Assembly (NCBI GenBank): GCA_030679995.1
Contig: JAUXSK010000018.1
Span: forward strand, 41,828 to 105,827
Direction: 5' to 3'
Origin: Candidatus Moraniibacteriota bacterium
GTDB lineage: Bacteria > Patescibacteriota > Minisyncoccia > Moranbacterales > UBA2206
Length of the DNA: 64,000 nt
The notes below the pieces were generated by a model. It was given only the letters and a program-made list of their open reading frames with translations. It made no database searches and was not told the DNA's origin. Position 1 is the first letter of the stretch. The number at the start of each line of letters is the position of its first letter. A program made the translations under genes and the position numbers. This document shows positions 17,712-47,648 of the stretch, one piece after another.

Positions 17712-17714
17712 AAG

Positions 17715-26294: not shown

Positions 26295-27239
26295 TTAAAC
26301 ATCCGCCAATCGTCCAAGTGATTGCAAAACGCTTTTTATGAAAACAGCGGAATTTTTCATTTTTTCCGAAGGAAAGCCGATCTGGTCATTCAATTCAAAA
26401 ACGAACGGTTCCGCCCCGTTTTGGACACCAAGATCGATAGAATAGACCGGACGGTTGAATTTTTCATCGATGCGCTCTTGTATTTTTTTCACCCTATCGA
26501 TGATGAATGCCGGGATATTTTCAAGGGGGACTTCTTTGATCGATCCGCCCTGGGCGACATTGGCCAGAAGCGATCCCTCCTTGGGCGCGCGTACATGACT
26601 CAAGACGATTTTGCCATCCGCGATCACTATGCGCAAATCATGGTGGCCATCGATAATCCCGGGGATTCCGCGGGAAGTATCGACAAATTCTTGAAGAATA
26701 TATTCGCGACCCTCTGGGATATCTGCTTGTTTTATTTTTTCCGCGCGATCAATCACGATCCCGTTGCCGCACATCCCGTTGGCGGGCTTGAGCACGACCA
26801 ACGCGGACGGAGAAAATGATTCCAGTTGCCGCAATAGTCCGGCCCTGTCTTTGATCTGGGAGCTTTTGGGCATAAAATCGCCGATAAATTCCTGAGTCGC
26901 ATTTTTATTGTTGCACAATCTTTTAAAATGGATATTATTCAAAGTTTTAGAGCCGGCATCTTCAGTCGGAAAAGACATCCCGCCGCTCCGATCGAAAACG
27001 GCATCCGCCTCGATGCTTTCCGTTTCCGGTTCAAAAAAAATTCCATTATAGCGATAGGCGTTATTGAAGACCAAAGGGCCTGTAGCGTCGGTTTTGCCGC
27101 TGGCGATATACATATCGAAGCCTTCAGCTAAGCCTTGTTTGAAAAAATCATGATAGACGCTCCTTTTCGCATCGAAAGTGGAGAAGGGATCCTTTTCCAT
27201 CTTACGCCTATGGAAATACATCACTATTTTTTTTCGCAT
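26295..27239 (-). CDS. ATP-grasp domain protein (amidoligase).
   Basis: LVVLKPANGMCGNGIVI and YILQEFVD...HHDLRIVIADGKIV are ATP-grasp core motifs. Confidence 0.6.
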   Translation of the reverse strand: MRKKIVMYFHRRKMEKDPFSTFDAKRSVYHDFFKQGLAEGFDMYIASGKTDATGPLVFNNAYRYNGIFFEPETESIEADAVFDRSGGMSFPTEDAGSKTLNNIHFKRLCNNKNATQEFIGDFMPKSSQIKDRAGLLRQLESFSPSALVVLKPANGMCGNGIVIDRAEKIKQADIPEGREYILQEFVDTSRGIPGIIDGHHDLRIVIADGKIVLSHVRAPKEGSLLANVAQGGSIKEVPLENIPAFIIDRVKKIQERIDEKFNRPVYSIDLGVQNGAEPFVFELNDQIGFPSEKMKNSAVFIKSVLQSLGRLADV

Positions 27240-28135
27240 ACGGTTAAATATTCAGCTAATTTTTTAATTTCAGGTGAAATATTGATATCCAGCGTGAGTG
27301 CCGGGCAACTGTTAACCTCGAATATCACAGGACTTCCGTCCGGCCGTTCGATGACATCTACGCCTGCGACCTGGATATGCGTCGTTCGGGCTGCCAAAAC
27401 AGCCTCTTTTTTGATACGGTTTCCGACTGTGGAAATATCGACAAATTCTTCAGTCGCCCCCAAATGCACGTTGTTCCGGAAAGCTTCTTTTTCAGAGCGG
27501 ATTTTTTTCTCAGTTACGGCCACTTTGCTTCCAGTCACAAGGATTCGATATTCAAAATCATTGGGGATGAATTCCTGCAGGAAGATTTCCTTGCGGTCAT
27601 CCTGACTGGATCTTTCCAGGATGATTTTTTCCAGCTCACTGATATTTTTGGCCAAAAAAACACCCGCCCCTTGCGAAGAGTTGCATTCTTTGACTACGAT
27701 CGGCAATTTCAGATATGTTACGGCATTGCGCAGGTGCTTTTTCGGATATGATCCGGCGAAATAAGTCTTGGGAATGGAAATCCCTGCCAACGCCAGGCGG
27801 AACATCTGGGTTATCTTGGCGGCATCGGATGCGTCCTTAGTTTGTTCATGGTAGCGGTCGATCAGATTGACTCCGGATTTTTTCGCTATGTGCGCCAGCA
27901 TATGGGCAACACCCCTGTTCCGGCCGACCTTTCTGATATAAATATTGTTCCAGGATGTCACCGGTTTCCCGCAAATCGACAATCCGACTTTGTTTTTTTC
28001 TATTTGAATTTCGGTCTCTTCTAGACTGGAAACGGAAAAATCCACTCCTTTCCGGGCGAGTTCGGCGCCGGTCAGGCGTAAAAATTTTTTCATTTTCGGT
28101 CCGGTCTTCTTCTTGTTTTTTAATATCAGCAACAT
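27224..28135 (-). CDS. RimK-family alpha-L-glutamate-ligase-like ATP-grasp enzyme.
   Basis: PIVVKECNSSQGAGVFL, LQEFIPNDFEYRILVTGSKV and GVDVIERPDGSPVIFEVNSCP are RimK-like motifs. Confidence 0.7.
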   Translation of the reverse strand: MLLILKNKKKTGPKMKKFLRLTGAELARKGVDFSVSSLEETEIQIEKNKVGLSICGKPVTSWNNIYIRKVGRNRGVAHMLAHIAKKSGVNLIDRYHEQTKDASDAAKITQMFRLALAGISIPKTYFAGSYPKKHLRNAVTYLKLPIVVKECNSSQGAGVFLAKNISELEKIILERSSQDDRKEIFLQEFIPNDFEYRILVTGSKVAVTEKKIRSEKEAFRNNVHLGATEEFVDISTVGNRIKKEAVLAARTTHIQVAGVDVIERPDGSPVIFEVNSCPALTLDINISPEIKKLAEYLTVCEKK

Positions 28136-28171
28136 AAGCGTTTTTAGTTACTTATTATAAAAACGGCTGGG

Positions 28172-29146
28172 TCAAATCTGTTTGTCATCGGAAACTGTCG
28201 TGTTTAATTTCAGGATGAAGTTTATGATGTCCTTGATGACATTCCTGGATTTGCCGTGAGTCGGGTTGTAATGGATATAGATGTCAGGCTTCCCGTTTAT
28301 TTCCAGGATTCCGAATGTCTGAGCGGCAGGATCCTCGGATATATTTTCGCAGATTATGTCGATGCCGGCAAGATAATAGCCGACCGCATCGGCGGCCTTG
28401 ACGCAAATGGAAATAATTTCTTTGTTGATCGAATCCGTGGCATCCCGGGTTTCCCCACCTTCAGCCAGGGAGGAACTTTTTTTGATAGAAACGGCTTCTT
28501 CGGCATCTAGGACGGAATCAAGCGAAAAACCTTGCTCGCGTAAAATTATTTCCAGCGCCCGGTCGATCGGAGTTTTTCGGCGGGTATGCTTCTGTTTTTT
28601 CTGGATGAGGGTGGCTATCGTGGATTTACCATCGCCGATGATTCTCGGCGGAATCATTTCCAGCGCCCCGATAACCTTTTTATCCAGTATGAGGATGCGG
28701 TATTCTTTGCCGAAGATCATTTCCTGGGCGATAAGCGATCTGAAATTCAAAATCTCTTTGATTATGACGGCTTTGGCCTCCTCTGCATTTTTTATGTAAG
28801 GGAAAATACCCTGGCTGTTTGAACCGGCGGAATCTTTGATGATTATGGGGAATTTTAGGTTGTTGAGTTTCTTTTCAACTTCTCCGGGTGTGAAATTTTT
28901 TCTGAAAAAAAAGACCGTAGTCGGCGTGGGAAGCGACTGGCGCCGGAGCAGCGTATAAGTCAGGTCCTTGTACGCCGTTGCGCCAGCGATGCTGATAAAG
29001 TTTTTGGCGATTCTGAATTTTCTTGTGATAAGAAAAGCCTTGCCACCTACGTGGATATAATAACAGCGCCTTTCCGGGATAACTTCTTCGAATGTCCCTC
29101 CCATTTCCTCGACGACTTTCCGGATCAATAAAGTGTTTTTTATCAT
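28172..29146 (-). CDS. ATP-grasp enzyme resembling the N-terminal ATP-grasp domain of cyanophycin synthetase and RimK.
   Basis: FPIIIKDSAGSNSQGIF, IIGDGKSTIATLI and GIDIICENISEDPAAQTFGILEINGKP motifs. Confidence 0.6.
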   Translation of the reverse strand: MIKNTLLIRKVVEEMGGTFEEVIPERRCYYIHVGGKAFLITRKFRIAKNFISIAGATAYKDLTYTLLRRQSLPTPTTVFFFRKNFTPGEVEKKLNNLKFPIIIKDSAGSNSQGIFPYIKNAEEAKAVIIKEILNFRSLIAQEMIFGKEYRILILDKKVIGALEMIPPRIIGDGKSTIATLIQKKQKHTRRKTPIDRALEIILREQGFSLDSVLDAEEAVSIKKSSSLAEGGETRDATDSINKEIISICVKAADAVGYYLAGIDIICENISEDPAAQTFGILEINGKPDIYIHYNPTHGKSRNVIKDIINFILKLNTTVSDDKQI

Positions 29147-30537
29147 TTTTTCACGTCGATTAAAAATTTGTTCAAATTTATCTTCCCGATAATCATCGGA
29201 TATTTCATATGCGATCGGTCGACCAAGGTTATTTTCGTGGGGATGGTTATCGTATCCATAGTGAATTCGATATTGATCATCGGACGGTAGGTGTAGCCAT
29301 TGGATGATTTTACAGGAATGGTGGAAACGATATCCGGAATATCCTTATAAATTTCCCAGCGCTCTTTTTTATCCAATTTCTTCAAATTTTCATAAGGCAT
29401 TTTTAATTTTTCAAATTCATCGATCGTTTTTTCAAAGCCCAGCGTTTTGGCCAGGCTGTCATCGATGGATGACCAGTCGGCGCCCGTGTCGATTTTAGCT
29501 TCCACTTCTATCGTCTTGCCGTCTTTTCCGACCAATTTGATTTTTTCCACGGTGCCGATGACTTTCCGGCCGGAAATTTCCTCGACTTCTTCCTCGATTT
29601 CTCCCCCGAATAGATCCATACCCATCCGCACTCCGCGGGCGATAGTTTTTATTTTGAGGCCGGAAACGCGCCTGAGCCTTTCGGCGAGGCCGGCCAGATT
29701 GGCGACTTGGATGGAAAGTCCCGGGCGGGCATTAAGCTCCAGGATGACTGGGCCGTGATTTTTATCGATAGCCACATCCACGCCTAGGAAGCCCAGATTG
29801 GAAATCTCTTGGGACTTCGAGGCCAGGAGCAGGATATCTTTCCAGTAGGGGATGCGGATGCCGCTGACGGGGAAATTCGTGCCGGGAATTTTTTCAATAA
29901 ATTTATTTTTCCCCTGGATAGCCGTCGTAGTCACTCCGGTGGCCATATCGATTCCGACGCCGACAGCGCCTTGTTGCAGGTTGGCTTTGCCTCCGGATTC
30001 CCGGGTGGGCAGGCGCAACATCGCCATCACTGGGACTTTATTGAAGACGATGACGCGGATATCCGGAATGCCCTTATATGAATAGGGTTTGAATAATTTC
30101 AGAAGCTGCAGGCGCTCTTCAAAAAATGCGATATCCGGCGTGTTGGACAGGGAAAATGAACCGTCCAAAATATTGCGGATGTGGCTGCGCAAATCTTCGA
30201 TAGTGATGAGCGAGCGGTCAGCCTTGACCCATGCGTCATCCCGCCCCTTCTTTTTTCCGTAAACCACGATGATGCCTTCGCCACCAAAACCGCGATTAGG
30301 CTTCAGAGCGAAACTTGAAGGAAGGGATTGCCAATCGAAATTTTCCAAATCTTCGATAGTTTTGATTTTGGCGATCAAGCTCGGCACGGCTATGCCGCTT
30401 TTTTTCAGGACTCGCTTGCTGAGTAACTTGTCGTCAGCCAGCCGTTTGGCCCGAAGCCGATTATACGGGCGAATGAACTCAAGATTTCTTGAGTTCATAC
30501 CGAGAAGCTTTTGGCTGTTTTTGAAAAATTCAAACAT
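29143..30537 (-). CDS. Fusion of an ATP-grasp ligase (alpha-L-glutamate-ligase-related) to a C-terminal retropepsin-like aspartyl-peptidase domain (Pfam 'Zn_protease').
   Basis: N-terminal FALKPNRGFGGEGIIVV...GKANLQQGAVGVGID...ILELNARPG, and C-terminal AKIDTGADWSSID (a DTGA aspartic-protease signature). Confidence 0.65.
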   Translation of the reverse strand: MFEFFKNSQKLLGMNSRNLEFIRPYNRLRAKRLADDKLLSKRVLKKSGIAVPSLIAKIKTIEDLENFDWQSLPSSFALKPNRGFGGEGIIVVYGKKKGRDDAWVKADRSLITIEDLRSHIRNILDGSFSLSNTPDIAFFEERLQLLKLFKPYSYKGIPDIRVIVFNKVPVMAMLRLPTRESGGKANLQQGAVGVGIDMATGVTTTAIQGKNKFIEKIPGTNFPVSGIRIPYWKDILLLASKSQEISNLGFLGVDVAIDKNHGPVILELNARPGLSIQVANLAGLAERLRRVSGLKIKTIARGVRMGMDLFGGEIEEEVEEISGRKVIGTVEKIKLVGKDGKTIEVEAKIDTGADWSSIDDSLAKTLGFEKTIDEFEKLKMPYENLKKLDKKERWEIYKDIPDIVSTIPVKSSNGYTYRPMINIEFTMDTITIPTKITLVDRSHMKYPMIIGKINLNKFLIDVKK

Positions 30538-30540
30538 CGG

Positions 30541-31200
30541 CTAGAGTTTTTTAATAATATCTTTGAAACGGATATATTCGCTCACCCGCAATCCGGTCCA
30601 GCGGCCGATCATAACATTAAAGGGTATGGTGAATAGGATGACCCAGGGATAGGCGACCAAGAGTTTTATCAATGCTCCCCAACTGGCGATATAAAAGCCT
30701 GCTACGGAAATGACCAGGGTTTCAAACGCCAAGATGAGCGCGGTCTTATTGCCTTTTTCAATTTGCACGGCGACGAATTTTTCTACCAGCGTGATCATAA
30801 TCAAAATAGGGAAAATTGAAACGGAAGCCAGTCCGGTCCTGCGCAGGTTGCCGCCGAAAACAAGCAACAATAGGATTAAAACGGCAACGACGGTCAACAT
30901 TATGGCGACACGGGGAAGGTAGAGGAGCCGGAAGGGCTTGAGGATGAAGCGCATCAGCATCCCGATGAAAATGACCGCTAAAAAAATCGCCACGCCATAA
31001 CGCAATCCGTTAGTAGCCAGGAAGGCGAAGGTGATGATAAGGGGCGTGTAGATGCCAAAAGCTTTGATACCGACGACTTGGCGCAAGAAAGCGATCAAAG
31101 TCGCGATAATCGGCAACATCAGGATTAAGATGATCGTTTCAAAAGGCACGCCTTCGATAAGGAAAAAACGGATTATGGGGCTGATGTTCAAGTCCATCAA
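30541..31200 (-). CDS. 7TM membrane protein, first gene of the ATP-grasp cassette. It may be related to the 7TM modules linked to RimK-like ligases.
   Basis: Seven predicted hydrophobic helices in 219 aa. It is spaced 4 nt from the next gene on the same strand. Confidence 0.5.
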   Translation of the reverse strand: MMDLNISPIIRFFLIEGVPFETIILILMLPIIATLIAFLRQVVGIKAFGIYTPLIITFAFLATNGLRYGVAIFLAVIFIGMLMRFILKPFRLLYLPRVAIMLTVVAVLILLLLVFGGNLRRTGLASVSIFPILIMITLVEKFVAVQIEKGNKTALILAFETLVISVAGFYIASWGALIKLLVAYPWVILFTIPFNVMIGRWTGLRVSEYIRFKDIIKKL

Positions 31201-36873: not shown

Positions 36874-37098
36874 TTAGAAGGTTAGTTTATAAAATAATGA
36901 ATTCCAGTCAATCGAGAAAAACAGCAGGAGATTGGAGAACAAAAGTCCGGCAGACACGGCTATGAACAGGAGCAGGACGATGGTTTTTATTTCCGAAGCC
37001 GTGGAATATTTGACCAGATGATATGCGATAAAAAGAGAAGCGAGCGTGTATATGGACACCAGGATCAGATATAGGATCAAGACAAAGAGAGAAAACAT
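36874..37098 (-). CDS. Small two-TM membrane protein.
   Basis: 74 aa, entirely hydrophobic, upstream of the PH-domain gene on the same strand. Confidence 0.3.
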   Translation of the reverse strand: MFSLFVLILYLILVSIYTLASLFIAYHLVKYSTASEIKTIVLLLFIAVSAGLLFSNLLLFFSIDWNSLFYKLTF

Positions 37099-37106
37099 CG
37101 TGTTAG

Positions 37107-38195
37107 TCAGATTAATTTGTTAGCGTTTGAATATTTTATGCCCAGGTGGTTGTAGGCGTGCTCGGTCACCATGCGGCCGCGCGGAGTCCTGGTCATAAAG
37201 CCGATTTGCAAGAGATAGGGTTCGTAGACATCCTCGATCGTCTTTATTTCTTCGCTGGTTGCCGCGGCGATCGTGCTCAGGCCGACCGGTCCGCCGTTGA
37301 ATTTTTCGATAATGGTGCGCAAGATGTGGCGGTCGGCCGGTTCCAACCCGATCGGGTCGACGTCGATCATTTCCAGGGCTTCCTGCGCGATGGCGCTGTC
37401 CACGAATGGGTGGTTTTTGATCTGTGAAAAGTCGCGTACGCGTTTCAAAAGCCGGTTGGCGACGCGCGGGGTTTGGCGGGCGCAACTGGCGATTTTGGCT
37501 AGTCCGGTGTCGTGGATATCCACGCCTAGGATCCGGCTGGATCTTTTGATGATATCCTTCACTTCCTCGTTTCCATAGAATTCCAACCGGTAGGTAGCGC
37601 CGAAACGGTTACGCAACGGATTGGTGAGTGATCCAAGTTTGGTCGTGGCGCCGATAAGGGTGAATTTAGGCAGATCCAACTGGATGGTGCGGGCCGAGGG
37701 GCCTTTGCCGATGATGATATCCAATTTGAAATCTTCCATCGCCGGATAGAGGATTTCTTCGATGGATTTATTGAGCCGGTGGATTTCATCGATAAATAGG
37801 ATATCGCCATCTTGCAAATTAGTCAGGATCGAACCGAAATCGCCGACGCGCTCGATGGCCGGGCCGGAAGTGGTCTTAATGTTGACGCCCATTTCTTTGG
37901 CGATGATGTTGGCCAGAGTCGTTTTGCCTAGTCCAGCCGGGCCGTATAGCAGGATGTGTTCGATAGGCTCTTTACGTTTTTTGGCGGCGCGAAGCAGGAA
38001 ATCCAGATTTTTTTTGACTTTCTCCTGGCCGATATATTCGGAAAAACTCTGGGGACGCAAGGTGTTATCCAGATTATTGTCTTCAACGGTTGCTTTCGGC
38101 TGGGTAGCGGAGGCCAGATCATTGAATTGTTCGGATGAATCGACTAACACAAGTAGTTTTAAATTTTCAATTTTAAATTTAAAATGAAATCCCAA
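37107..38195 (-). CDS. ruvB: Holliday junction helicase RuvB. Its N-terminal ~25 codons are encoded by AT-rich repeat sequence, so the true start may be further downstream.
   Basis: Walker [15 protein letters not shown], Walker [11 protein letters not shown] and sensor motifs. Confidence 0.9.
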
Positions 38196-38285
38196 ATGTT
38201 TAAATTTTTAAACATTCAGCATTTAAAATTGATTTAAAATTTCAAATTTATAAATTTAAAATTATAGGCTTTAGCCTCATTGTAG
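38150..38285. repeat. AT-rich repeat/palindrome element related to the intergenic repeat family.
   Basis: TTTTAAATTTTCAATTTTAAATTTAAAATGAAATCCCAAATGTTTAAATTTTTAAACAT... containing the perfect palindrome ATGTTTAAATTTTTAAACAT. Confidence 0.5.
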
Positions 38286-38291
38286 CATTGC

Positions 38292-38320
38292 TTGACAAAA
38301 AATAAAAGGTGTGCTAAGAT
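38292..38320 (+). promoter_or_regulatory. Near-consensus sigma70-type promoter driving the orphan plus-strand transcript.
   Basis: TTGACA (38292-38297), a 17-nt spacer, then TGcTAAGAT extended -10 (38312-38320). Confidence 0.55.
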
Positions 38321-38326
38321 GCCTAG

Positions 38327-38558
38327 TCATATGATTTTGGCTGAAAAACGCCTTTCGTATGGCTAGCAGTAAGCTGTAGGCAATTGGTGATTTCTATCTT
38401 TTGTCATCAATTTTGGGAACTTTTTATCAAGATATGGGCGGATTGGTGCAAGCTGGGCCGTGCCTCGATACTGTTCCTTCCCCGAGGGCCTAGCTCTTGG
38501 GACTTGCCTGCAGATTACTGATTGATAGAGAAAAACTCGGTTCATACCGGGTTTTTTG
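38327..38558 (+). ncRNA. Candidate ~230-nt small RNA of unknown identity, with its own promoter and intrinsic terminator and no plus-strand ORF.
   Basis: Bounded by the promoter above and a terminator ACTCGGTTCATACCGGGTTTTTTG (38534-38557). It is GC-richer than its surroundings and contains GGGCGGATTGGTGCAAGCTGGGCCGTGCCTCG...CCCCGAGGGCCTAGCTC pairing potential. It lacks the 5' GGGG / 3' CCA tmRNA signatures and the RNase P P4 motifs. Confidence 0.3.
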
Positions 38559-38577
38559 TTTGGATAAAAAAGAAAAG

Positions 38578-38612
38578 GCGGGAGCTCCAGTGTGATGGAA
38601 TTCCCGCCCGGG
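38578..38612 (-). terminator. Rho-independent terminator of the GGDEF gene.
   Basis: The minus strand reads GGGCGGGAATTCCATCACACTGGAGCTCCCGCC followed by TTTTCTTTTTT. Confidence 0.55.
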
Positions 38613-38618
38613 CAAAAG

Positions 38619-39794
38619 TTATTTCTTATGGCAAGGCCGCAACAATACCCTTATCTCATAATCAAGAGTGAGAACTCTGTTTCTGAGAAAGGAAGCGCAT
38701 TCGTCGATTTCTGAGATTTCTGATATTTCAACTAGAAAATCATCATGTGATGCGGTTATGTCGCAAGTCTGTAATAGGCCATATTTTTTAATTATCAGCC
38801 GGTACAGTTCGCTTGAAACATCGGTTCGCAGGCGGTTTATTCGCCTTGCTTCATGTAAACGGATGGCGGATTCCTGGTCCGTCGTTCCGCGTGTTATCAG
38901 CAAGGCCTGCAAATTATTCGCGGGACAGGCTGATTCCCAGAGTTTTTCCTTGAGGATTATTTTCCTGTGGGTGACTAAGTCACCGGAAATATCCTCCACC
39001 ATTCCCATCAGGGTGTCTCCCAAGGCTTTTTTCGAAAAAGCCTTGTTTTTGTCGCACGTTTGCAAGAATGAAACAAGGATATCCCAAAAAATGCATTCCC
39101 CAGCCGTAACGGACGGGGTGAAATGGAACTTTCCTGATGAGCGTTCCGCTTTTTCTAGCAGGCACTGGCCATATTCGCCAAGTCGATTATTCGTTTCCGG
39201 ATTATGGAAGTCCAAATCAGGAAAGGAAATCTTCGAGACTTCGGAAATAACCAGGTCTCTTAAGACGAGATACATCGGACAGTAGGTCGGTTCATCAATC
39301 GCGCAAGGAATTATTTCATCAACGCTGCCGGTGCTTCTTCTGACCAGCACATCGAATTCATCTCCACCTGCCCGGTCGATTTCCAGGATCAGCGAATGCT
39401 TTTCGCAAAAGTCCCGGATTGTCTGGTTATGGAGAGCTCCGGCAACCAGATCCAGCAGGGCATCACCTAATCGATGGCTGCCGACATCGTTGACCGTTTT
39501 CAGTCCATCCAGATCGAAACGGATCTTAGCGACCCGTTTCAGTCGGGTTTTGATTTCGGCTATCGGCTGGCCGCTAAAAAGAGTTAGGATAAAAATATTG
39601 CGAATCTCGTTTTTTATCCAAGCTCCGCCCTCGTGGAAGCCATGCTTGGCTGCCAACTTCTCGTAATTTGGGGGAGAACAAGTCTCCTTATCGTCATTTG
39701 GTGTCGCCACCCTACTTATCAATTCTTGTAATTCGCTTTCCATAGTCATACGTCGATTCTCCTGTCGAATTTTAAGATTGATGCTTAAGTCCAC
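38619..39794 (-). CDS. GGDEF-domain diguanylate cyclase (catalytic motif intact, no I-site) with a C-terminal extension of unknown function.
   Basis: FDLDGLKTVNDVGSHRLGDALL...RAGGDEFDVLV follows the canonical D.D..K..ND..GH..GD..L...R.GGDEF order. GGDEF lies at nt 39354-39368. Confidence 0.7.
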   Translation of the reverse strand: MDLSINLKIRQENRRMTMESELQELISRVATPNDDKETCSPPNYEKLAAKHGFHEGGAWIKNEIRNIFILTLFSGQPIAEIKTRLKRVAKIRFDLDGLKTVNDVGSHRLGDALLDLVAGALHNQTIRDFCEKHSLILEIDRAGGDEFDVLVRRSTGSVDEIIPCAIDEPTYCPMYLVLRDLVISEVSKISFPDLDFHNPETNNRLGEYGQCLLEKAERSSGKFHFTPSVTAGECIFWDILVSFLQTCDKNKAFSKKALGDTLMGMVEDISGDLVTHRKIILKEKLWESACPANNLQALLITRGTTDQESAIRLHEARRINRLRTDVSSELYRLIIKKYGLLQTCDITASHDDFLVEISEISEIDECASFLRNRVLTLDYEIRVLLRPCHKK

Positions 39795-39876
39795 CTAGTT
39801 GACAGCCAAAGCGCGGTGTCTGGTGTCCAAATAGGTGGACTTAATTTTTTTAAAGAAACTGGGTCGGTAAAGGATG

Positions 39877-42800
39877 TCACAGGTCAGTCACCCGTTCGAT
39901 TTCTTCGATGGTAGTTTCACCCTCCAAGACTTTCAATACGCCGTCTTGGGCCATCGTCAACATTCCGTTTTCCATAGCCTTGTCGGCCAATTCAGAAGTG
40001 ATGGCGCCTTGGGTAATAAGGGCTTGGATGTCTTTATCGACAATAAACACTTCACTGATGGTGGTGCGGCCTTTGTAGCCGAGGTAATTGCATTTTTCAC
40101 AGCCTTTGGGTTTGCAGATTTTTTCAATCGGCGGGATTTCCACGCCGGATTTCGGTGAAATCGTTTTGATAACCATAGTGATTTTTTCTTTTTCTTCGAG
40201 TGTCGGAATGGTTTTTTCTTTGCAGTCGCACAATTTGCGCACCAGGCGTTGTGCCATAAAAGCGTTTACGCCGGAAGCGATATCGGAAGGCGAGACGTCC
40301 ATATTGAGCATCCTCTGGACCGCTCCAGCCGCGTTGTTGGTGTGGATGGTAGAAAGGACCAAATGTCCGGTCAGCGCGGCTTGCACGGCGACTTCGGCGG
40401 TCTCGTTGTCGCGGATTTCACCGATCATCATAATGTCAGGATTCTGGCGCAAGAGCGAACGCAGGGCGGTCGGAAAAGTATAACCCTCTTTGTCGTTCAC
40501 GGGAGTTTGCAGCAGACCTTCGATTTGGTACTCGATCGGATCTTCTACGGTGATGATTTTCACTTCGGGTTTATTGAGGATATTCAAGAGACTGTAGAGG
40601 GTAGTGGTTTTGCCGGAACCGGTCGGACCGGTATTTAGGAAAACCCCGTTTGGCTTGGAAATTTCGTGCAAGATTTTTTTCTTGTTCTGTTCGCGGATGC
40701 CGAGCTTGTTGATGTCCAATTCTTGCGAAGCCTTGCTTAAAAGCCGCATTACTACGGTTTCCCCGTAGCCGCCGAGAATGATGGAGATACGCACGTCGAC
40801 CGATCTTTCCTTGACATCGGCAATCTCATCGGCGAAGCGGATTGAAAAACGGCTGTCGACGACGCCTTCGCGCACTTGGGATTTGACGCCGCTCAGGATT
40901 TTTATTTCACCGAGGATGGCCGGATATTCATTGAGCGGCAATGCCACGACGGTTTGCAGGATGCCGTCGATGCGGAACCGGAATTTCACATCGTTTCGTC
41001 CTGGCTCGATGTGGATGTCGCCGACCCCGAGCAATGAGGCGGCTGCGAAGATGATTTTGTTGATATCGGGGACTTTGGCGAGGTAGATGGCGGCTTGGAG
41101 TTTTTTGAAATCGGCGATGTTTTCTTGGGCTTTGGCAAAAGATTCCTCGTCGACCAGGATATTGCGGCCGAGCGATTGGGACATCAGCTTTTCATAGACG
41201 CCTTCCAAGAAATCACCTTCGCCCGTGACACGCTTCACTTCGTCGATGGAGGTTATGCCGCCCAAAGCTTTCAAAATTCCGTCTTGCAACATCGTGATCA
41301 TTCCGGCCTCCAGCGCGGCCACGGTCAATTCCGTTTCTCCAGCCAGATTGAGAATCAGGCTTTCCAAATCCTCATTGAGGGTGAGCACTTCAAAGATGCC
41401 GATGCGTCCCTTATAACCGAGATTATTGCATTTGGGGCAACCCTTCGGCCGGTAGAGCTTGGTGATCTCTTTGGGTACCTCGACTTTGGCTTTGGGGGAT
41501 ATGATGGATAATATTTTTTTGATGGAAGCGAGTGATTCTTTGGCTGGCACATATTCCTCCTTGCAATCGCACAATTTGCGCACTAATCTTTGGCCGATAA
41601 TCGCATTGACAGCGGGAACGATCAGCGAGGGCTTCACGCCCATCTCGATGAGGCGGGGGATGGTCCCGATGGCGTTGTTGGTATGGATGGTGGAAAGGAC
41701 CAAATGTCCGGTCAGCGCCGAGTTGACGGCGATGTCGGCTGTTTCTTCATCGCGGATTTCTCCCACTAGGATGACGTCCGGATCCTGCCTGACGATGGCG
41801 CGCAAACCGTTGGCGAAAGTGTAGCCACGGGATCTTTCAATCTGGGTCTGGGAAATGCCGGCGACTTCATATTCGATCGGATCTTCGATGGTGATGATTT
41901 TCGTTTCCGGATCGTTGAGTTTGTTGATGAAAGAATAGAGAGTGGTGGTTTTACCGGAGCCGGTCGGACCGGTCGTGAGAATCATACCGTTAGGCGCGGA
42001 AATCTGTTTTTGCAACTCCTCATAGGCCAGGCCTTGCAGTCCCAGACTTTCCACATTGACCTGGATGGAGGAGGGATCAAGAAGGCGCATAACCACACTT
42101 TCTCCGAAACTGCCTGGAATGATGGAAACGCGGATAGCGATTTTTTTAGCTTCGATGTTCACTTCGAAATTACCATCCTGGGCGATGTCGCGCAGGTTGA
42201 TTTTCATGCCCGACATCATTTTTATCCTGGAGATGATGGTTTTGAAGATATTCAGAGGCAAAAAAGCCACGTCATGCAAGACGCCGTCGATCCGGTAGCG
42301 CAGACGGAATTCTTTTTCCTGCGGTTCGATGTGGATATCGCTTGCGCCAAGTTTATAGGCGCCGCCCATGACGATATTCAGGACTTGGGTAGTCGGTAAC
42401 TCGTTAATCCGTTGTTTCAGGGTGATGAGGTCTTTCAGATATTCATCGAATTTTTCCAAATCGTCCCCGGTGAGGTTGACGCTTAGCTGGGAAAGGATGT
42501 CGGTGAAAACGATCTTTTTATATTTCTCTAGGACTTTATCCATATTATAGCGGGAAATCACGAAAATCTGCGTATCCCAACCCCTGGTTTCAGAAAGATT
42601 TTTCAAGTATCCGACAGTTTTCAATTGTATCGGATCAGGCGAGACTATCGTAGCTTTCTTGCCGATTTTCTGGATGATGGCGATATCATAGAGCCTTGCA
42701 TCTTCCTCGGATAGCAACTTCAGGCTTTCAGTGCTGATCGGGACGAGATTGGTGTCAAGATATGGCAGTCCGAGCGCCGCCGCGAAAGCTGCCGCCTGCT

Positions 42801-42912
42801 CTTCTTCGGATTGGTGGCGTAAATTGGACAGGACTTTGGCGGTGTCAGTTTCTTTTTGAGAAGCTCCGACAGTTCCCAAGGATGATGAGCGGTCCCTTAA
42901 TATTTTTATCAT
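39877..42912 (-). CDS. pilB: Covalently fused tandem GspE/PilB-family secretion ATPase with N1-N2-CTD-N2-CTD architecture.
   Basis: Two complete modules. Each has Walker A GPTGSGKTT (nt ~41944-41973 and ~40601-40633), Asp box, Walker B (DPDVILVGEIRDEETA and NPDIMMIGEIRDNETA), His box LTGHLVLSTIHTNNA and a tetracysteine CDCK...C(P/E)KCN. A GspE_N-like N1 domain lies in the first ~150 aa. Confidence 0.85.
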   Translation of the reverse strand: MIKILRDRSSSLGTVGASQKETDTAKVLSNLRHQSEEEQAAAFAAALGLPYLDTNLVPISTESLKLLSEEDARLYDIAIIQKIGKKATIVSPDPIQLKTVGYLKNLSETRGWDTQIFVISRYNMDKVLEKYKKIVFTDILSQLSVNLTGDDLEKFDEYLKDLITLKQRINELPTTQVLNIVMGGAYKLGASDIHIEPQEKEFRLRYRIDGVLHDVAFLPLNIFKTIISRIKMMSGMKINLRDIAQDGNFEVNIEAKKIAIRVSIIPGSFGESVVMRLLDPSSIQVNVESLGLQGLAYEELQKQISAPNGMILTTGPTGSGKTTTLYSFINKLNDPETKIITIEDPIEYEVAGISQTQIERSRGYTFANGLRAIVRQDPDVILVGEIRDEETADIAVNSALTGHLVLSTIHTNNAIGTIPRLIEMGVKPSLIVPAVNAIIGQRLVRKLCDCKEEYVPAKESLASIKKILSIISPKAKVEVPKEITKLYRPKGCPKCNNLGYKGRIGIFEVLTLNEDLESLILNLAGETELTVAALEAGMITMLQDGILKALGGITSIDEVKRVTGEGDFLEGVYEKLMSQSLGRNILVDEESFAKAQENIADFKKLQAAIYLAKVPDINKIIFAAASLLGVGDIHIEPGRNDVKFRFRIDGILQTVVALPLNEYPAILGEIKILSGVKSQVREGVVDSRFSIRFADEIADVKERSVDVRISIILGGYGETVVMRLLSKASQELDINKLGIREQNKKKILHEISKPNGVFLNTGPTGSGKTTTLYSLLNILNKPEVKIITVEDPIEYQIEGLLQTPVNDKEGYTFPTALRSLLRQNPDIMMIGEIRDNETAEVAVQAALTGHLVLSTIHTNNAAGAVQRMLNMDVSPSDIASGVNAFMAQRLVRKLCDCKEKTIPTLEEKEKITMVIKTISPKSGVEIPPIEKICKPKGCEKCNYLGYKGRTTISEVFIVDKDIQALITQGAITSELADKAMENGMLTMAQDGVLKVLEGETTIEEIERVTDL

Positions 42913-42984
42913 AAAGATACGGACTCAATTTTGTTTATTTTACTTCATTTTACTTCATTTCGCGCTATCCTACAAATTGCAAGC

Positions 42985-43010
42985 TCAAAAAAACTCCCAT
43001 AATGGGAGTT
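42985..43010 (-). terminator. Rho-independent terminator downstream of the nrnA-like gene.
   Basis: The minus strand reads AAACTCCCATTATGGGAGTTTTTTTGAG. Confidence 0.6.
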
Positions 43011-43075
43011 TATCCGGAGTGATATTTTTCAAAGCTGGTTTCTGGTCCGGTTTCCAGTGTCGGATCAAGAAAAAA

Positions 43076-44356
43076 TCAATGGCTGATTTCTTTTATTTTC
43101 TTAGCGATCGATTCTCCAGCCTCAGCTATGTTGGCCATAGTTAGGTGTATCTCCAATGTGTCGCGCTTGAGCGTGCCGTTGAAAAACTGATTGATTCTTT
43201 TTAGCAATTCTTGGTCGGATGATTTCAAATCAGCTACGGTCGAAAGGGAAGTATCATTATAGAGAGCCATAAAAATTTTACCATCACTGTAGTTTTCCTG
43301 CAATTTCTCCAAAATCAGCGCGATATCGGTTTGGTTGGAACGGCTTTGCACGAAATCTTCCACACTGATGATTGTCCAAACCAATTTAGTCTGTTCATCC
43401 AGATTGAGATTTGACATGGCGCGCCCCCAAAGTTTCAGGATATGCAAAGGCTGGGTTTTGTACAGCCAGCGGATGATAGTCTGCTGGTCGGCTTTTTTGT
43501 CCATCAGGGCGGCGGCGGCCAAGAGGGATCGCGGAGTGGTGTTTTTCTTCTGGAAACTTTCCGTGGCGCTGATGATACCGGTCAGAAGACAGTCGGCGAT
43601 AGCCTTGTCGATCAGGTTCACATCCATATCATTGAAGGCGGCGCTTAGGATTTCGCTGCAAGATGAAGCGGTGGTATCGACCAGGTTGATTTGGCCGAAA
43701 TTGTCATTGTCGCTGCGGTGGTCGATATTGACGATCGGGACTTCGAAAAACAGATCCGGATTATTCTCATATATCTTGCCGAGCCGTTCCAAGTCCGGGC
43801 TGTCCAAAACAACGATCAGGTCATATTTGAATTTGGCCAGGATGAAAGAGAAATCACGCGGATTGAGCGCGCCTTTCTCAGGCGTCAGATAAATATTCAA
43901 TTTATCGGCTGTTTTTTCCGTGCGGATATCCCGGATCTTATTGTAGGCCGTGTCGAATGACAGTACGAAGTCGCGGGCGCCGGAAATTTCCGTGAGGATC
44001 CCCTCCGGCTTAGGCAGGAAATCATATTTGGCGGAGAGGTGGTTGGAAAAGGCGATCGTAGCCCGGACGCCTTTTTTTTGCAGAAAAAAATAGAGCGCCC
44101 AAGCGCTGCCGACCGCATCTCCGCTGGGATTTTCCGGAATCAAAACCAGTACATCTTGGGATTTGTCTATGAATTGCTTGAATTGTTCCTGGGGTGACAG
44201 TGTCATAAGTTGATAGTTATTTTTAAGCAGTATTACAAGATAACAGGATAAAAAGCGCGTGTCAAATAAAGCCCTCTTTTCTTTTTGGCGGATTACCGCT
44301 AACATATGTATGTTATGGAAAAAGAATTTATCACTGGAAATTTCAAAGAAACGCAA
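43076..44356 (-). CDS. nrnA: DHH/DHHA1-family phosphoesterase (NrnA-like nanoRNase / pAp phosphatase).
   Basis: DHH-family layout with VNIDHRSDNDNFG (a DHR variant of the DHH motif) and a C-terminal DHHA1-like GGGH region. Confidence 0.6.
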   Translation of the reverse strand: MRFFEISSDKFFFHNIHMLAVIRQKEKRALFDTRFLSCYLVILLKNNYQLMTLSPQEQFKQFIDKSQDVLVLIPENPSGDAVGSAWALYFFLQKKGVRATIAFSNHLSAKYDFLPKPEGILTEISGARDFVLSFDTAYNKIRDIRTEKTADKLNIYLTPEKGALNPRDFSFILAKFKYDLIVVLDSPDLERLGKIYENNPDLFFEVPIVNIDHRSDNDNFGQINLVDTTASSCSEILSAAFNDMDVNLIDKAIADCLLTGIISATESFQKKNTTPRSLLAAAALMDKKADQQTIIRWLYKTQPLHILKLWGRAMSNLNLDEQTKLVWTIISVEDFVQSRSNQTDIALILEKLQENYSDGKIFMALYNDTSLSTVADLKSSDQELLKRINQFFNGTLKRDTLEIHLTMANIAEAGESIAKKIKEISH

Positions 44357-44854
44357 AAATTAGGCAAGTCCCTGGCTTTAGAGATTGGAAACGAGCTCCA
44401 AGGTCCAGCCTTGTCTTCAATAGCGCGATCTCAAAGTCCGATTCTGGAAGGCGCCTTCGTGTTTTGTCTGGAAGGCGATTTGGGCGCCGGAAAAACCACG
44501 TTCACGCAGGGGGTATTGAAAGGATTGGGAGCTGAGGGGCCATACACGAGCCCGACCTTTCTCATAATGAAAGAATATAATTTGCAAGATACAAAATACA
44601 AGAAACAAGAAACAAAAAAATTCAAAATTCAAAATTCAAAATTCAAAATTCGGAACATATATCATATTGACGCGTATCGGGTTGGAGCTGAAGATGTTTT
44701 GAGTCTAGGCTGGGAAGAGATGATCGCCGATCCGAAAAACGTCGTAATCGTGGAATGGCCGGAAAAAATCGCACGGATATTACCGGAAAATTCAATCAGG
44801 ATAAAATTTGAGTGGCTGGATGAGAATCAGAGGAAAATAACCTTTGGAAAATAA
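44306..44854 (+). CDS. tsaE: tRNA threonylcarbamoyladenosine biosynthesis ATPase TsaE (YjeE), carrying an in-frame ~20-aa Lys-rich insertion derived from a repeat element.
   Basis: Walker A LEGDLGAGKTTFTQG, then SPTFLIMKEY and IYHIDAYRV. The insertion NLQDTKYKKQETKKFKIQNSKFKIRN lies between the conserved Y and H. The start may be at 44315. Confidence 0.75.
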   Translation: MYVMEKEFITGNFKETQKLGKSLALEIGNELQGPALSSIARSQSPILEGAFVFCLEGDLGAGKTTFTQGVLKGLGAEGPYTSPTFLIMKEYNLQDTKYKKQETKKFKIQNSKFKIRNIYHIDAYRVGAEDVLSLGWEEMIADPKNVVIVEWPEKIARILPENSIRIKFEWLDENQRKITFGK

Positions 44855-44886
44855 AAAATCTTACCGTTGCGGTAAGATTTTTTTAA
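44855..44886. terminator. Bidirectional terminator between tsaE and the CDF transporter gene.
   Basis: AAAAAATCTTACCGTTGCGGTAAGATTTTTTT. Confidence 0.7.
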
Positions 44887-44889
44887 GTG

Positions 44890-45894
44890 TTAATTTATTT
44901 CGATATCCACGTGGATCACTTCTGGAAACTTTTTCTGGATCCTTTTCTCGATGGCGTCGATCTTGCTGCCGATGAGGCGCGGTACGCGATCGATGTAGTC
45001 TGCGCAAAAACGTACAAAGCCGGCATAATCGTCCTTGATATCATCGAATTCATCTTTGAGCGCCCCGTTTCGGTACATCGCTTTCATCAGGGCCGGTCCA
45101 TGGAATTCAACTTCGCATTTGATGCGGTATTTTCTGAAGTCTAGGGTGGAGGATTTGAAATCGATGACCTTTTCAACGGCTGGCTCGGCCTCAAGGATTT
45201 TGATGATATGTTCTTGCATATCTTCCGGCATAGATTTTTCCAACAGGTATTCCCGATTTTTAGCGATTAGGATGATGGCGACAACCGCCAGGAGGATGCC
45301 GATGAAGATGGAACCAATCGCATCCCAATAATGCTGGCCGGTCAGATAGGTCAGGACGATGCTGGCAATCGCGATTAGGATACCTAAAACCGCCACTCCG
45401 TCTTCATAGAGGACGGCGATAGAGGACGGATCGCCCTGGCGCAGCGATTGCGCCAGGCTTTGGTTTTTGATTTTGATGGCGCGAAAAGCGATGATGAAGG
45501 TAAAACTTTCAATGATGAGTGAAAGGATAAGGATAGCGAATATGGCAGGTGAAATATGCACCTCGGCGGTTTGGCGCAAATCGCTGATGCCTTTGTAGAT
45601 GGTCACGCCGGCGCCCAGAAAGAAAATCCCGCAAGCCGAAATGAGCGCCCAGAAAAACCTTTCATGGCCGTAGCCATAGGAGAATTTCCGGGTGGCTTTT
45701 TTGGAAGACCTCTTGATGCCGACCATCAGCAACGCCTGGTTGCTGGTATCGGCCAAGCTGTGGATGCCTTCGGAAAAAAGCGCGCTGGATCCAGAAAGGG
45801 AAAAGCCTGCGAACTTGAGAATCGTGACCAGAAGATTGCCGCCCAGGGCGGATGCGACCGGCCAAAAACCGGAGGTTTTGTCAGTAGGTATCAT
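44890..45894 (-). CDS. Cation diffusion facilitator (CDF) family metal efflux transporter.
   Basis: Six TM helices and CDF signature HSLADTSNQALLMVGIKRSSKKATRKFSYGYGHERFF. Confidence 0.8.
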   Translation of the reverse strand: MIPTDKTSGFWPVASALGGNLLVTILKFAGFSLSGSSALFSEGIHSLADTSNQALLMVGIKRSSKKATRKFSYGYGHERFFWALISACGIFFLGAGVTIYKGISDLRQTAEVHISPAIFAILILSLIIESFTFIIAFRAIKIKNQSLAQSLRQGDPSSIAVLYEDGVAVLGILIAIASIVLTYLTGQHYWDAIGSIFIGILLAVVAIILIAKNREYLLEKSMPEDMQEHIIKILEAEPAVEKVIDFKSSTLDFRKYRIKCEVEFHGPALMKAMYRNGALKDEFDDIKDDYAGFVRFCADYIDRVPRLIGSKIDAIEKRIQKKFPEVIHVDIEIN

Positions 45895-46892: not shown

Positions 46893-47648
46893 ATGCGAAA
46901 AACCAAAATATTCCTGCTCTTGCTGGGCGTGCTGGCGCTGGCCGGCTGCTCGCAGGAGGAAGTGAGGCAAAATACGGTGGACAGTCCGGTTTTGAATCCG
47001 GCGGCCAATACCCAACAGATGCTGGATCTGAAAAACCAGGCCCAGCAAAATATCCAAGGATCGGTCGATAAGGAAAACGCAAGATTAAATAATACGCTTA
47101 ATGAAAACAATATGAATGATGTGGCAAACGCACTAGGGGAAAACGCAGCGCTGGTCAAAAACTATCCGCTGGCTGTAATTAAAACCAGCCTGGGAGATAT
47201 CAAAGTTAAGTTCAATGGCGACAAGACGCCGGTGACAGTGGGTAATTTTCTGAAATTGGCACAGGCCGGTTTTTACAATGACACGAAATTCCATCGGGTC
47301 ATCAAAGGCTTTATGATCCAAGGCGGCGATCCGAATTCCAAAAAAGATAACGTTTCCACTTGGGGAACGGGCGGACCAAATTATCGTTTCAATGACGAAT
47401 TGTCGGGACAGGAGAAATATCCGCAAGGCACATTGGCAATGGCTAATGCCGGACCGGATACCAACGGGTCGCAATTTTTCATCGTGACGGCCAGCCCCGA
47501 GGCGCCGTTGCCGCCGAGTTACACCGTTTTCGGTTCCGTCGTGTCCGGCTTGGATGTGGCGCTCAAGATCGAGAACGTCAAAACCGGAACCAATGACCGG
47601 CCGGCGGAGGATGTGGTGATCAAGGGTGTTGAATTGTTGGAGAAATAA
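46893..47648 (+). CDS. Cyclophilin-type peptidyl-prolyl cis-trans isomerase, a lipoprotein.
   Basis: Lipobox LLLLGVLALAGC. The cyclophilin core FHRVIKGFMIQGGDP...GTLAMANAGPDTNGSQFFI. Confidence 0.85.
   Translation: MRKTKIFLLLLGVLALAGCSQEEVRQNTVDSPVLNPAANTQQMLDLKNQAQQNIQGSVDKENARLNNTLNENNMNDVANALGENAALVKNYPLAVIKTSLGDIKVKFNGDKTPVTVGNFLKLAQAGFYNDTKFHRVIKGFMIQGGDPNSKKDNVSTWGTGGPNYRFNDELSGQEKYPQGTLAMANAGPDTNGSQFFIVTASPEAPLPPSYTVFGSVVSGLDVALKIENVKTGTNDRPAEDVVIKGVELLEK

Follow-up and report, generated by a model that had tools for sequence, protein, structure and literature searches.

The episymbiotic life of CPR bacteria (Patescibacteria) depends on type IV pilus-like machines, and to our knowledge almost nothing is known about how these machines are regulated. 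In the window, the 64-kb stretch of DNA analysed here, three adjacent genes of a Moranbacteria-type CPR bacterium raise the question of whether such a machine is locally controlled by c-di-GMP. A preliminary description read them as an NrnA-like DHH nuclease that degrades pGpG, a tandem PilB whose N-terminal domain is a c-di-GMP receptor, and a catalytically intact GGDEF cyclase. Our analysis confirms the genes and supports the interpretation only in part, with most of the c-di-GMP circuit failing. The reading as cyclase, receptor and hydrolase is not backed by sequence, and the labels "nanoRNase NrnA" and "PilB" hide a probable pseudo-enzyme and a fused double ATPase. The locus can best be described as a block of core genes conserved in Moranbacteria, into which one optional gene is inserted, an explanation that we hold with about even confidence.

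The ORF calls place three co-directional genes on the minus strand between positions 38619 and 44356, as previously described. Their order is DHH-like, fused double PilB and GGDEF-like, followed by ruvB. The initial calls for the GGDEF-like and DHH genes were too long at the 5' end. The DHH-fold protein, identified by Pfam, has 376 aa; its gene starts at ATG 44206, in line with orthologues of 374-377 aa, and comprises 43076..44206. The fused PilB/GspE-type ATPase has 1011 aa and is encoded by 39877..42912. The most likely start of the GGDEF-like gene (38619..39749, 376 aa) is ATG 39749, which has an AGGAG ribosome-binding site and agrees with homologues of 373-376 aa. With this start, the spacing from the pilB stop is 127 nt and not 82 nt as first given.

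The DHH-like gene is followed by an intrinsic terminator (42987..43011, minus strand), composed of a hairpin at 42991-43011 and a U run (-14.8 kcal/mol, z -3.46). A terminator had been claimed at 42985-43010, and it is real; a hairpin with a T run is found at the matching place in the related lineages L001, L006, L088, L098, L096 and L097, with different stem sequences. Between this terminator and pilB, sequence reading reveals a promoter-like site (42941..42975, minus strand) made of TTGTAG (42975-42970), a 17-nt spacer and TAAAAT (42952-42947). L088 and L098 share the TTGTA box. The site overlaps a 10-nt direct repeat at 42941-42960, lying within the interval 42935-42962 in which a repeat had been reported; it doubles a -10-like TAAAAT and is limited to the window clade (window, L001 and L006). 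The only match of a sigma-70 scan before pilB (42937-42908) overlaps the start codon and was rejected in favour of TTGTAG-17-TAAAAT. Since the start of pilB is promoter-like and separated by a terminator, the link to the DHH-like gene is one of neighbourhood only, which supports the earlier proposal that pilB has its own promoter.

The spacer between pilB and the GGDEF-like gene has a strong predicted hairpin without a U run (39785..39844, minus strand; -28.9 kcal/mol, z -4.96). The long stem is kept at the equivalent place in L001 and L006 despite sequence differences in and around it. This hairpin is not a classical terminator, so co-transcription of the GGDEF-like gene with pilB is possible in the window clade. 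An intrinsic terminator, consisting of a hairpin and a U run (38566..38609, minus strand; -21.7 kcal/mol, z -4.2), follows the GGDEF-like gene. Just outside the studied span, a small conserved structured RNA of 157 nt is predicted at 38360-38516 and is unannotated. No Rfam family was found in the whole window at gathering score, or in 37000-45000 at E<=1, and thus no c-di-GMP riboswitch (GEMM); ARAGORN gave no tRNA or tmRNA.

The GGDEF-like protein was assigned by profile, AlphaFold and Foldseek, and by its predicted model it is a genuine GGDEF fold. The AlphaFold model has a pLDDT of 91.7 and a pTM of 0.82, and the top 30 Foldseek matches in the PDB are all GGDEF domains (TM-score 0.5-0.64, normalised on the target). 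The family profile matched solved diguanylate cyclases in the PDB at 6e-9, and hhalign to canonical GGDEFs gave a probability of 99.4%. The protein begins with N-terminal helices, continues into a GGDEF fold interrupted by a hairpin-helix insert, and ends in long C-terminal helices. Both RAGGDEF and DLDGLKTVNDVGSHRLGD are found in it. The upstream motif is present with canonical N-to-D spacing, but it reads ND.G.H..GD, so that the pattern ND..GH..GD given before was one position off. As had been noted, no RxxD I-site precedes GG by 5 residues when the sequence is read directly against the PleD layout.

Residues D79, K84, N87 and D96 correspond, with identical spacing, to D327, K332, N335 and D344 in the list of catalytic and binding residues of PleD (PMC6629876), and they are invariant or nearly so in 31 family members. 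Some members carry N, S or T at the D344 position. Invariant in all 31 are D79, N87, G95, G129, D130, E131 and R287, while K84, H92, G128, F132 and K263 are nearly invariant. The members compared are only 20-30% identical, and at this distance such conservation is a signature of retained catalysis. The C-terminal half of the domain aligns weakly. K263 and K267 are tentative equivalents of the phosphate-binding K442 and R446, since they pair with them only where a forced hhalign alignment is of low confidence, in its tail. The dN/dS of the gene is 0.15, which indicates purifying selection, compared with 0.02-0.07 for its three neighbours. From these residues, the protein is probably an active cyclase, although an insert of about 60 residues could disrupt catalysis.

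The curated HMM cut-offs are not reached. The protein scores 20.5 bits against Pfam PF00990 (cut-off 23.8), over profile positions 24-93 of 161 only, and 24.1 against NCBIfam TIGR00254 (cut-off 37.4). All six relatives scanned against NCBIfam also missed the latter cut-off, and the Pfam GGDEF model matched 25 of the 31 family members. Among other library identities, PADLOC gave no match and NCBIfam gave only sub-threshold diguanylate cyclase/phosphodiesterase models. The claim of a catalytically intact GGDEF therefore stands for the signature, the metal- and guanine-binding residues and the fold, and is not established by the HMM scores.

These scores bear on the strongest of the alternatives, namely that the protein is a non-catalytic, degenerate GGDEF acting as a nucleotide receptor or ATPase adaptor, like FimX, PelD and GdpS. 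Sub-threshold matches confined to the first two thirds of the domain, the large insert with the unusual helical extension, and the fast evolution are all consistent with it. However, D79, N87, G129, D130 and E131 would not be expected to stay invariant, nor K84, H92, G128, F132 and K263 nearly so, in such divergent proteins. In degenerate GGDEFs of known families, the GGDEF motif itself is usually gone, and here it is kept. We consider this alternative unlikely.

The DHH-like gene and the fused PilB form a widespread core pair, and the DHH-PilB-RuvB synteny is conserved. A GGDEF-like gene fills the slot before ruvB in the window clade and in L003, L004, L088, L090 and L098. Among these six lineages, its product is 27-46% identical and PilB 66-97%. 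The gene is missing from all three relatives sampled through PilB (L095, L096 and L097), where the synteny is otherwise identical, and a tblastn search of their pilB-ruvB spacers for remnants gave nothing better than E 0.02. The GGDEF-like gene is optional, divergent and fast-evolving, and close relatives do without it. Its recurrence in one slot over such a range of PilB identities could mean a real functional tie to PilB. The slot of L090 has in addition an IVP, a 67-aa ORF and a receiver domain, whose gene lies directly upstream of the GGDEF-like gene. In L088, L004 and L003, the slot also has a leader with a 27-30-aa ORF, and the leader is promoter-like. Distant family members P0011, P0014 and P0030 are on short contigs, and the readable context (L093) has no PilB nearby. 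A pattern scan of metagenomes returned mostly ordinary GGDEF proteins sharing the DxNGLKxxN box. Its extended matches were limited to L008, L010 and L011, and of these L011 alone has a PilB-type gene, which is single and lies at a distance of 6 kb on the opposite strand.

This variability could also be that of a hypervariable accessory or conflict locus, in which GGDEF-like alleles are horizontally exchanged or replaced and serve host/phage signalling unrelated to PilB. The similarity of the GGDEF-like proteins is out of step with that of PilB: L004 and L098 are 87% identical in PilB and 30% in the GGDEF-like protein, and the window and L004 are 76% and 44% identical, respectively. The presence of the gene is patchy, the other slot contents vary (L090; L088, L004 and L003), and the GC3 of the GGDEF-like gene is 0.50, below the 0.60-0.65 of its neighbours. 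Nevertheless, the incongruence comes from a small neighbour-joining tree and saturated distances. The slot flanks have no mobile-element genes or repeats, no effector gene was found adjacent, and the lack of a PADLOC match also argues against a conflict system. We rank this explanation somewhat below a degenerate GGDEF, as rather improbable.

The second gene was correctly called a tandem pilB. The fused protein has two T2SSE ATPase modules (Pfam, 756.7 bits over two stretches), 48% identical to each other, and each half has a Walker A motif, an Asp box, a Walker B motif, a His box and a CxxC...CxxC tetracysteine motif. It is composed of a short N-terminal region, a GSPII-like subdomain, an N2-CTD module, a linker and a second N2-CTD module. 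At least 120 clusters of fused PilB of about 1005-1015 aa were found at 69% identity or more, with the exception of P0181 (1460 aa, 52%); those carrying a source name are mostly from Moranbacteria or Parcubacteria. The proposal that the N-terminal domain is a c-di-GMP receptor does not hold for the known type of site. MshEN consists of two tandem 24-residue motifs, RLGxx(L/V/I)(L/V/I)xxG(L/V/I)(L/V/I)xxxxLxxxLxxQ, with a 5-residue spacer (PMC5013675). A strict search for this pattern gave no match in the window PilB or in the six reading frames of the window, and a relaxed pattern derived from the same source matched neither any of nine fused PilBs nor those six frames. At best, 6 of 11 positions agree. 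Pfam MshEN (PF05157) gave a sub-threshold 18.3 bits (cut-off 23.1) over residues 47-131, which corresponds to the C-terminal subdomain only. Furthermore, the N-terminus of PilB is alike whether or not a lineage has the GGDEF-like gene. No PilC/GspF, pilin or PilM/N/O genes were found in about 59 of the 60 window ORFs or in the flanks of related loci (up to 10 kb per side), and the platform and pilin genes may be elsewhere in the genome.

The DHH domain of the first protein passes Pfam at 39.2 bits, with no Pfam match for DHHA1, and the NCBIfam equivalog model for NrnA gives 38 bits (cut-off 350). The closest relatives in the PDB, Rv2837c/NrnA and TmPDE (E ~1e-13), align with residues 127-297 only. 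The active site of B. subtilis NrnA consists of H20, D24, D26, D80, H103, H104 and D156 (PMC5593865). At these seven positions, the window protein has P24, S28, D30, D135, H163, R164 and A214, respectively. The same replacements are seen in 121 orthologues, where H20 becomes P, D24 becomes S, T or N, H104 becomes R or K, and D156 becomes A. Of the 121, none retains the Asp of D24, the His of H104 is kept in 4, and 118 have A in place of D156. The GGGH motif is missing in all of them; its equivalent, placed by eye as no computed NrnA alignment covers the C-terminus, is a variable FNGTLKRD. With four of the seven active-site residues (H20, D24, H104 and D156) replaced and GGGH missing, the protein is, judged on sequence, not a credible pGpG hydrolase or nanoRNase, contrary to the preliminary description, and its remodelled active site is probably inactive. 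As D30, D135 and D162 are retained and residue 216 is acidic, some residual or altered metal chemistry is conceivable. The gene is strongly conserved (dN/dS 0.05-0.07), with at least 120 conserved clusters that often share contigs with fused PilB.

In a bolder reading, the DHH-like protein and the fused PilB are a Moranbacteria-specific two-gene motor module. The dead DHH protein would be a dinucleotide or nanoRNA sensor, or a regulator of a trimer-of-tandems ATPase ring, and the hypervariable cyclase in the slot an optional, lineage-specific input to this sensor. If true, c-di-GMP would be linked to the pilus through a receptor type not yet described. We regard this as a long shot.

No EAL, HD-GYP, PilZ or second GGDEF protein was found in about 59 of the 60 ORFs of the 64-kb window, and the one remaining ORF (46893-47648) was assigned as Pro_isomerase by synteny. 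As far as seen, the c-di-GMP pathway is incomplete within the window, with no receptor, phosphodiesterase or riboswitch. The argument from three genes in a row is weak, because DHH-PilB-RuvB is a conserved core that stands without the GGDEF-like gene in all three relatives sampled through PilB. In the literature, we found nothing specific on tandem or fused PilB, on a DHH-PilB link or on c-di-GMP in Patescibacteria; one paper notes in general terms that sediment-attached ultra-small MAGs are enriched in diguanylate cyclase genes. A circuit of c-di-GMP synthesis by the GGDEF protein, sensing by the PilB N-terminal domain and pGpG clearance by the DHH protein fits the adjacent, co-directional genes, the conserved GGDEF catalytic residues, the pilB/GGDEF-like interval without a U-run terminator in the window clade, the identical slot in six lineages and the upstream receiver-domain gene of L090, but it is very doubtful given the nine fused PilBs without the MshEN motif, the lost DHH active site and GGGH, the equal conservation of the DHH-like protein and PilB where the GGDEF-like gene is missing, the PilB N-terminus that is alike in either case, and the promoter-like leader of the GGDEF-like gene itself in L088, L004 and L003.

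We therefore return to the conserved block with an optional insert. Its core order would be tsaE and the DHH-like gene, then the fused double PilB, a variable slot, the small structured RNA and ruvB. The fused PilB would be a working secretion or pilus-type ATPase, each polypeptide providing two protomers, so that three copies may form a six-module ring. Its DHH-like partner would have lost the two-metal site. In the window lineage, the slot would hold a fast-evolving, stand-alone GGDEF-family enzyme, divergent outside its invariant catalytic and guanine-binding residues. This enzyme most likely condenses two GTP into c-di-GMP, and members with N, S or T at the D344 position may make a close cyclic dinucleotide. 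It would probably act as a homodimer through the long C-terminal helices, without I-site feedback. Its target would not be the known MshEN-type site of PilB, and the link to the motor would be positional and dispensable in relatives. The locus thus offers as targets a GGDEF subfamily missed by standard HMM thresholds, a widespread tandem PilB whose ring would need three polypeptides, and a dead-looking but strongly conserved DHH partner. An active cyclase would make this a compact system in which to study the role of c-di-GMP in a very small genome.

Comparison with known systems places each protein. The GGDEF-like protein shares the predicted fold of PleD, WspR and T. maritima TM1788 (PF00990), and also the GGDEF hairpin, the Mg-binding Asp and the guanine-binding Asn/Asp spacing of diguanylate cyclases. 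Unlike these, it scores under the Pfam and NCBIfam cut-offs, has F replaced by L in the DxDxFK box (DLDGLK), has the insert of about 60 residues following the GGDEF strand, and lacks an I-site and a recognised sensor domain. Family-specific are the motifs LMG...SD......K...K and TR, followed by about 130 residues of long helices. The fused PilB shares the PilB/GspE-type ATPase core of MshE, PilB2 and PilF and has the GSPII-like C-terminal subdomain in its N-terminus (weak Pfam MshEN). It differs in being a covalent tandem of two N2-CTD modules and in lacking the two 24-residue MshEN motifs; the 46 residues before the GSPII-like part are too short and are unrelated to MshEN. NrnA, Rv2837c (CnpB) and TmPDE are the closest PDB sequence relatives of the DHH-like protein, with similar lengths and a DHH domain that passes Pfam. 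In contrast to them, it has four of seven active-site residues replaced, a variable first DHH histidine, and neither GGGH nor a DHHA1 HMM match, and its gene is always upstream of fused PilB. FimX-PilZ-PilB and GdpP show that a GGDEF-type domain can be coupled to a PilB motor and to a DHH domain, respectively. The GGDEF of those systems is degenerate and is tied to the pilus ATPase in the former and to DHH/DHHA1 in the latter, whereas here no EAL or PilZ partner was found in the window, the protein has an intact GGDEF signature, and the association is an optional one between separate genes.

The preliminary description read the three adjacent genes as a local c-di-GMP circuit, in which a GGDEF cyclase, a PilB receptor and an NrnA-like DHH protein that clears pGpG act together. 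Two of these three legs, the PilB receptor and the DHH hydrolase, fail, while an active GGDEF protein, judged from its residues and its predicted fold, is a plausible third leg. The locus has under-described components: a GGDEF subfamily below HMM cut-offs, a widespread fused PilB, and the dead-looking DHH partner of this PilB.

The three genes are indeed co-directional on the minus strand, in the order DHH-family gene (ORF 43076-44356 as called), fused double pilB gene (39877-42912, 1011 aa) and GGDEF-like gene (38619-39794, a 391-aa ORF as called), with ruvB (37107-38195, minus) as the fourth. Comparison with homologues, together with ribosome-binding sites, places both outer starts further downstream than called. 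The DHH gene begins at ATG 44206 and encodes 376 aa (orthologues, 374-377 aa), and the GGDEF-like gene begins at ATG 39749, behind an AGGAG site, and likewise encodes 376 aa (homologues, 373-376 aa). The spacer from pilB to the GGDEF-like gene is therefore 127 nt, not 82 nt as first given. The closest database proteins to those of the window belong to MAGs of Candidatus Moranbacteria and of the Parcubacteria group.

Elsewhere in the window, in the replication origin region (16404-20827), the minus strand carries rnpA, yidC and a Jag/R3H gene, and the plus strand dnaA and dnaN; the GC skew turns near 20 kb, with a cumulative minimum near 18-20 kb. A type IV secretion or conjugation-like cluster (1603-9821, plus) encodes a PrgI-family protein, a VirB4/TraG-type P-loop ATPase (604 aa) and an SLT transglycosylase, and also has several large ORFs without any Pfam match, such as 6150-8822 (890 aa). 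A 23S rRNA IVP four-helix protein is located at 1176-1538. A run of four ATP-grasp genes (RimK, GSH-S, ATPgrasp_ST; 26295-31200, minus), including one with a fused putative zinc-protease domain, adjoins a 7TM_transglut membrane protein, and this arrangement is kept in the related loci L001 and L098.

The DHH-like protein passes Pfam DHH (39.2 bits) and has no match to Pfam DHHA1; its score for the NrnA equivalog of NCBIfam is 38 vs a cut-off of 350. Its best solved relatives, Rv2837c/NrnA and TmPDE (E ~1e-13), align with residues 127-297 only. The active site of B. subtilis NrnA is composed of H20, D24, D26, D80, H103, H104 and D156, and its DHHA1 domain binds the substrate through a GGGH motif (PMC5593865). 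The window residues aligned to these seven positions are P24, S28, D30, D135, H163, R164 and A214, respectively, where motif I (the H20, D24 and D26 positions) was aligned by a sub-significant HMMER stretch (-0.1 bits) and a P-x-x-D-x-(V/I)-G-S pattern. Among 121 orthologues of at least 64% identity, all 121 have S, T, N or G at the D24 position, 118 have Ala at the D156 position, 116 have R or K at the H104 position, and only 83 have H at the H103 position. The GGGH-equivalent region, placed by eye, the C-terminus being outside the computed NrnA alignments, is variable. Both ligands of metal 2 and one of metal 1 are lost, which makes a canonical two-metal phosphoesterase unlikely. The gene is nevertheless under strong purifying selection (dN/dS 0.05-0.07), and the orthologues have long invariant patches. 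The protein thus has a function, though probably not pGpG hydrolysis, the activity first proposed for it.

The 1011-aa protein has two matches to Pfam T2SSE (756.7 bits) and lies above the cut-offs of both the GspE and the PilB equivalogs of NCBIfam. Its halves (residues 150-563 and 590-1009) share 48% identity, and each contains Walker A (GPTGSGKTT), an Asp box (EDPIEY), Walker B (ILVGEIRD / MMIGEIRD), a His box (TGHLVLSTIHTN) and a CxxC...CxxC motif; an N-terminal extension is confined to the first half. The fused PilB has relatives in at least 120 protein clusters, which, with one exception, are about 1005-1015 aa long and at least 69% identical, and those with a named source are mostly from Moranbacteria or Parcubacteria. 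This number of same-sized clusters rules out that the fusion is an assembly artefact. The exception, the fused-PilB relative P0181 (1460 aa, 52% identity, 98% query coverage), may have three ATPase modules. The usual six-module ring would be built from three fused polypeptides. Among the ~59 ORFs scanned of the window's 60, and in up to 10 kb on either side of the related loci, no gene for PilC, PilM/N/O or a pilin was found.

The N-terminal domain of PilB, proposed as a c-di-GMP receptor, lacks the MshEN motif. The strict pattern has no match in the window PilB or in the six-frame translation of the window, and the relaxed search pattern, published besides the strict one (PMC5013675), has none in that translation or in nine of nine fused PilBs. 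The best 24-mer has 6 of the 11 conserved positions. The Pfam MshEN match is sub-threshold (18.3 vs 23.1 bits) and spans residues 47-131, which is the GSPII-like C-terminal subdomain; the 46 residues ahead of this part are too few for the 53-residue binding module. Whether or not a lineage has the GGDEF-like gene, the N-terminal architecture is the same.

Six lineages have the GGDEF-like gene 3' of the fused PilB (the window clade, L003, L004, L088, L090 and L098). It follows directly in the window clade (L001/L005 and L006), L088 and L098. On the short contigs of L003 and L004, it is directly preceded by 65 aa of the C-terminal part of a PilB-type gene and by a PilB-type linker and second module, respectively. 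In L090, the most divergent of the lineages with this gene, the slot between pilB and ruvB also holds a 23S rRNA IVP gene, a 67-aa ORF and a stand-alone receiver-domain gene (6334-7528), which separate the GGDEF-like gene from pilB. The receiver-domain gene is its immediate upstream neighbour, and the two may be a split response-regulator/cyclase pair. The GGDEF-like gene is missing from all three relatives picked via PilB alone (L095, L096 and L097; PilB 69-72% identical), in which the block is otherwise the same (PolA-PPIase-TsaE / DHH-PilB-RuvB-74aa-bPH-LTD) and no relic is detectable in the spacer. The DHH-like protein and PilB have at least 120 conserved clusters each, often from shared contigs, and the close GGDEF-like family has seven. 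Evolution is faster in the GGDEF-like gene than in its neighbours: its dN/dS is 0.15 vs 0.03-0.04 for PilB and 0.02 for RuvB, and its amino-acid identity is 79-87% where PilB has 96-97%. Between L004 and L098, PilB is 87% and the GGDEF-like protein 30% identical, and thus their similarities do not track; a more distant family member, P0014 in L093, has no PilB nearby. Because of this patchy presence, fast divergence and PilB-independent similarity, the stable unit is the DHH-like protein with the fused PilB, and one slot is variably occupied by the cyclase, an optional gene. The link of the cyclase to PilB is one of position and is dispensable.

The terminator reported between the DHH gene and pilB was recovered (-14.8 kcal/mol, z -3.5); its position is kept in other lineages, with different stems. 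Past it, ahead of pilB, lies TTGTAG-17-TAAAAT, and the direct repeat described there is present as a duplicated -10-like box restricted to the window clade. The spacer from pilB to the GGDEF-like gene has a hairpin with a 13-bp stem and without a U run (-28.9 kcal/mol, z -5), whose long stem is kept in place in L001 and L006 despite sequence differences in and around it; co-transcription of the two genes is therefore possible in the window clade. In L088 (7567-8000), L004 (1845-2263) and L003 (200-615), this spacer is ~420 nt long and contains a promoter-like box, a long hairpin (AAACAAACAACAA.../...TTGTTGTTTTTGTTT), a 27-30-aa ORF that has an RBS but no conserved sequence, and a strong second hairpin immediately ahead of the GGDEF-like RBS. 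It may be a leader or attenuator. Another terminator (-21.7 kcal/mol) lies 3' of the GGDEF-like gene.

A conserved structured RNA candidate of 157 nt (38360-38516, minus) is located between the latter terminator and a promoter-like site of ruvB. It also precedes ruvB in L001, L006, L095, L096 and L097, and in L088, whose copy has a 127-nt insertion. RNAalifold predicts 43 pairs, 11 with compensatory double changes, and the closing stem CTGCAGGCAA/TTGCCTACAG covaries. The element has no Rfam match at E<=1, tmRNA was rejected as its identity, and no Rfam family was found in the window.

No EAL, HD-GYP, PilZ or second GGDEF domain was found in the ~59 ORFs scanned in the 64-kb window. The GGDEF-like protein itself, described as catalytically intact, keeps the signature residues and the fold but misses the curated HMM cut-offs, both for Pfam GGDEF (20.5 vs 23.8 bits, profile positions 24-93 only) and for TIGR00254 (24.1 vs 37.4). 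A word-index search gave only seven relatives, of which the source-named ones are CPR (Candidate Phyla Radiation) proteins, and a profile search run exhaustively over 1.84 billion representatives gave 392 matches at E<=1e-3 and 26 at E<=1e-10. In an alignment of 31 family members (19-87% identity to the window protein), D79, N87, G95, G129, D130, E131 and R287 are invariant, and G82, L83, K84, H92, L99, G128, F132, G217, M248, G249 and K263 nearly so. Pfam GGDEF is matched individually by 25 of the 31, and the family profile matches solved diguanylate cyclases at 6e-9 and, in hhalign, canonical GGDEF domains with 99.4% probability. The AlphaFold model made with this alignment (pLDDT 91.7, pTM 0.82) has helices at the N-terminus, a GGDEF core (~72-232) into which an extra hairpin-helix segment is inserted, and long helices over ~130 residues at the C-terminus. 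At E<=1e-3, its Foldseek PDB matches are GGDEF domains of diguanylate cyclases; those further down, to about rank 30, are likewise GGDEF domains, degenerate ones such as FimX among them.

There is no RxxD I-site ahead of the GG, as had been noted. The D96 position, which determines base preference in GGDEF enzymes, as in Hypr-GGDEFs, is N, S or T in some relatives. From the conserved residues and the model, the protein is probably an active, divergent cyclase, and we infer a cyclic product. K263 and K267 fall on PleD K442 and R446 solely in a low-confidence forced alignment. D79, K84, N87 and D96 have the same spacing as D327, K332, N335 and D344 in the residue list of PleD (PMC6629876).
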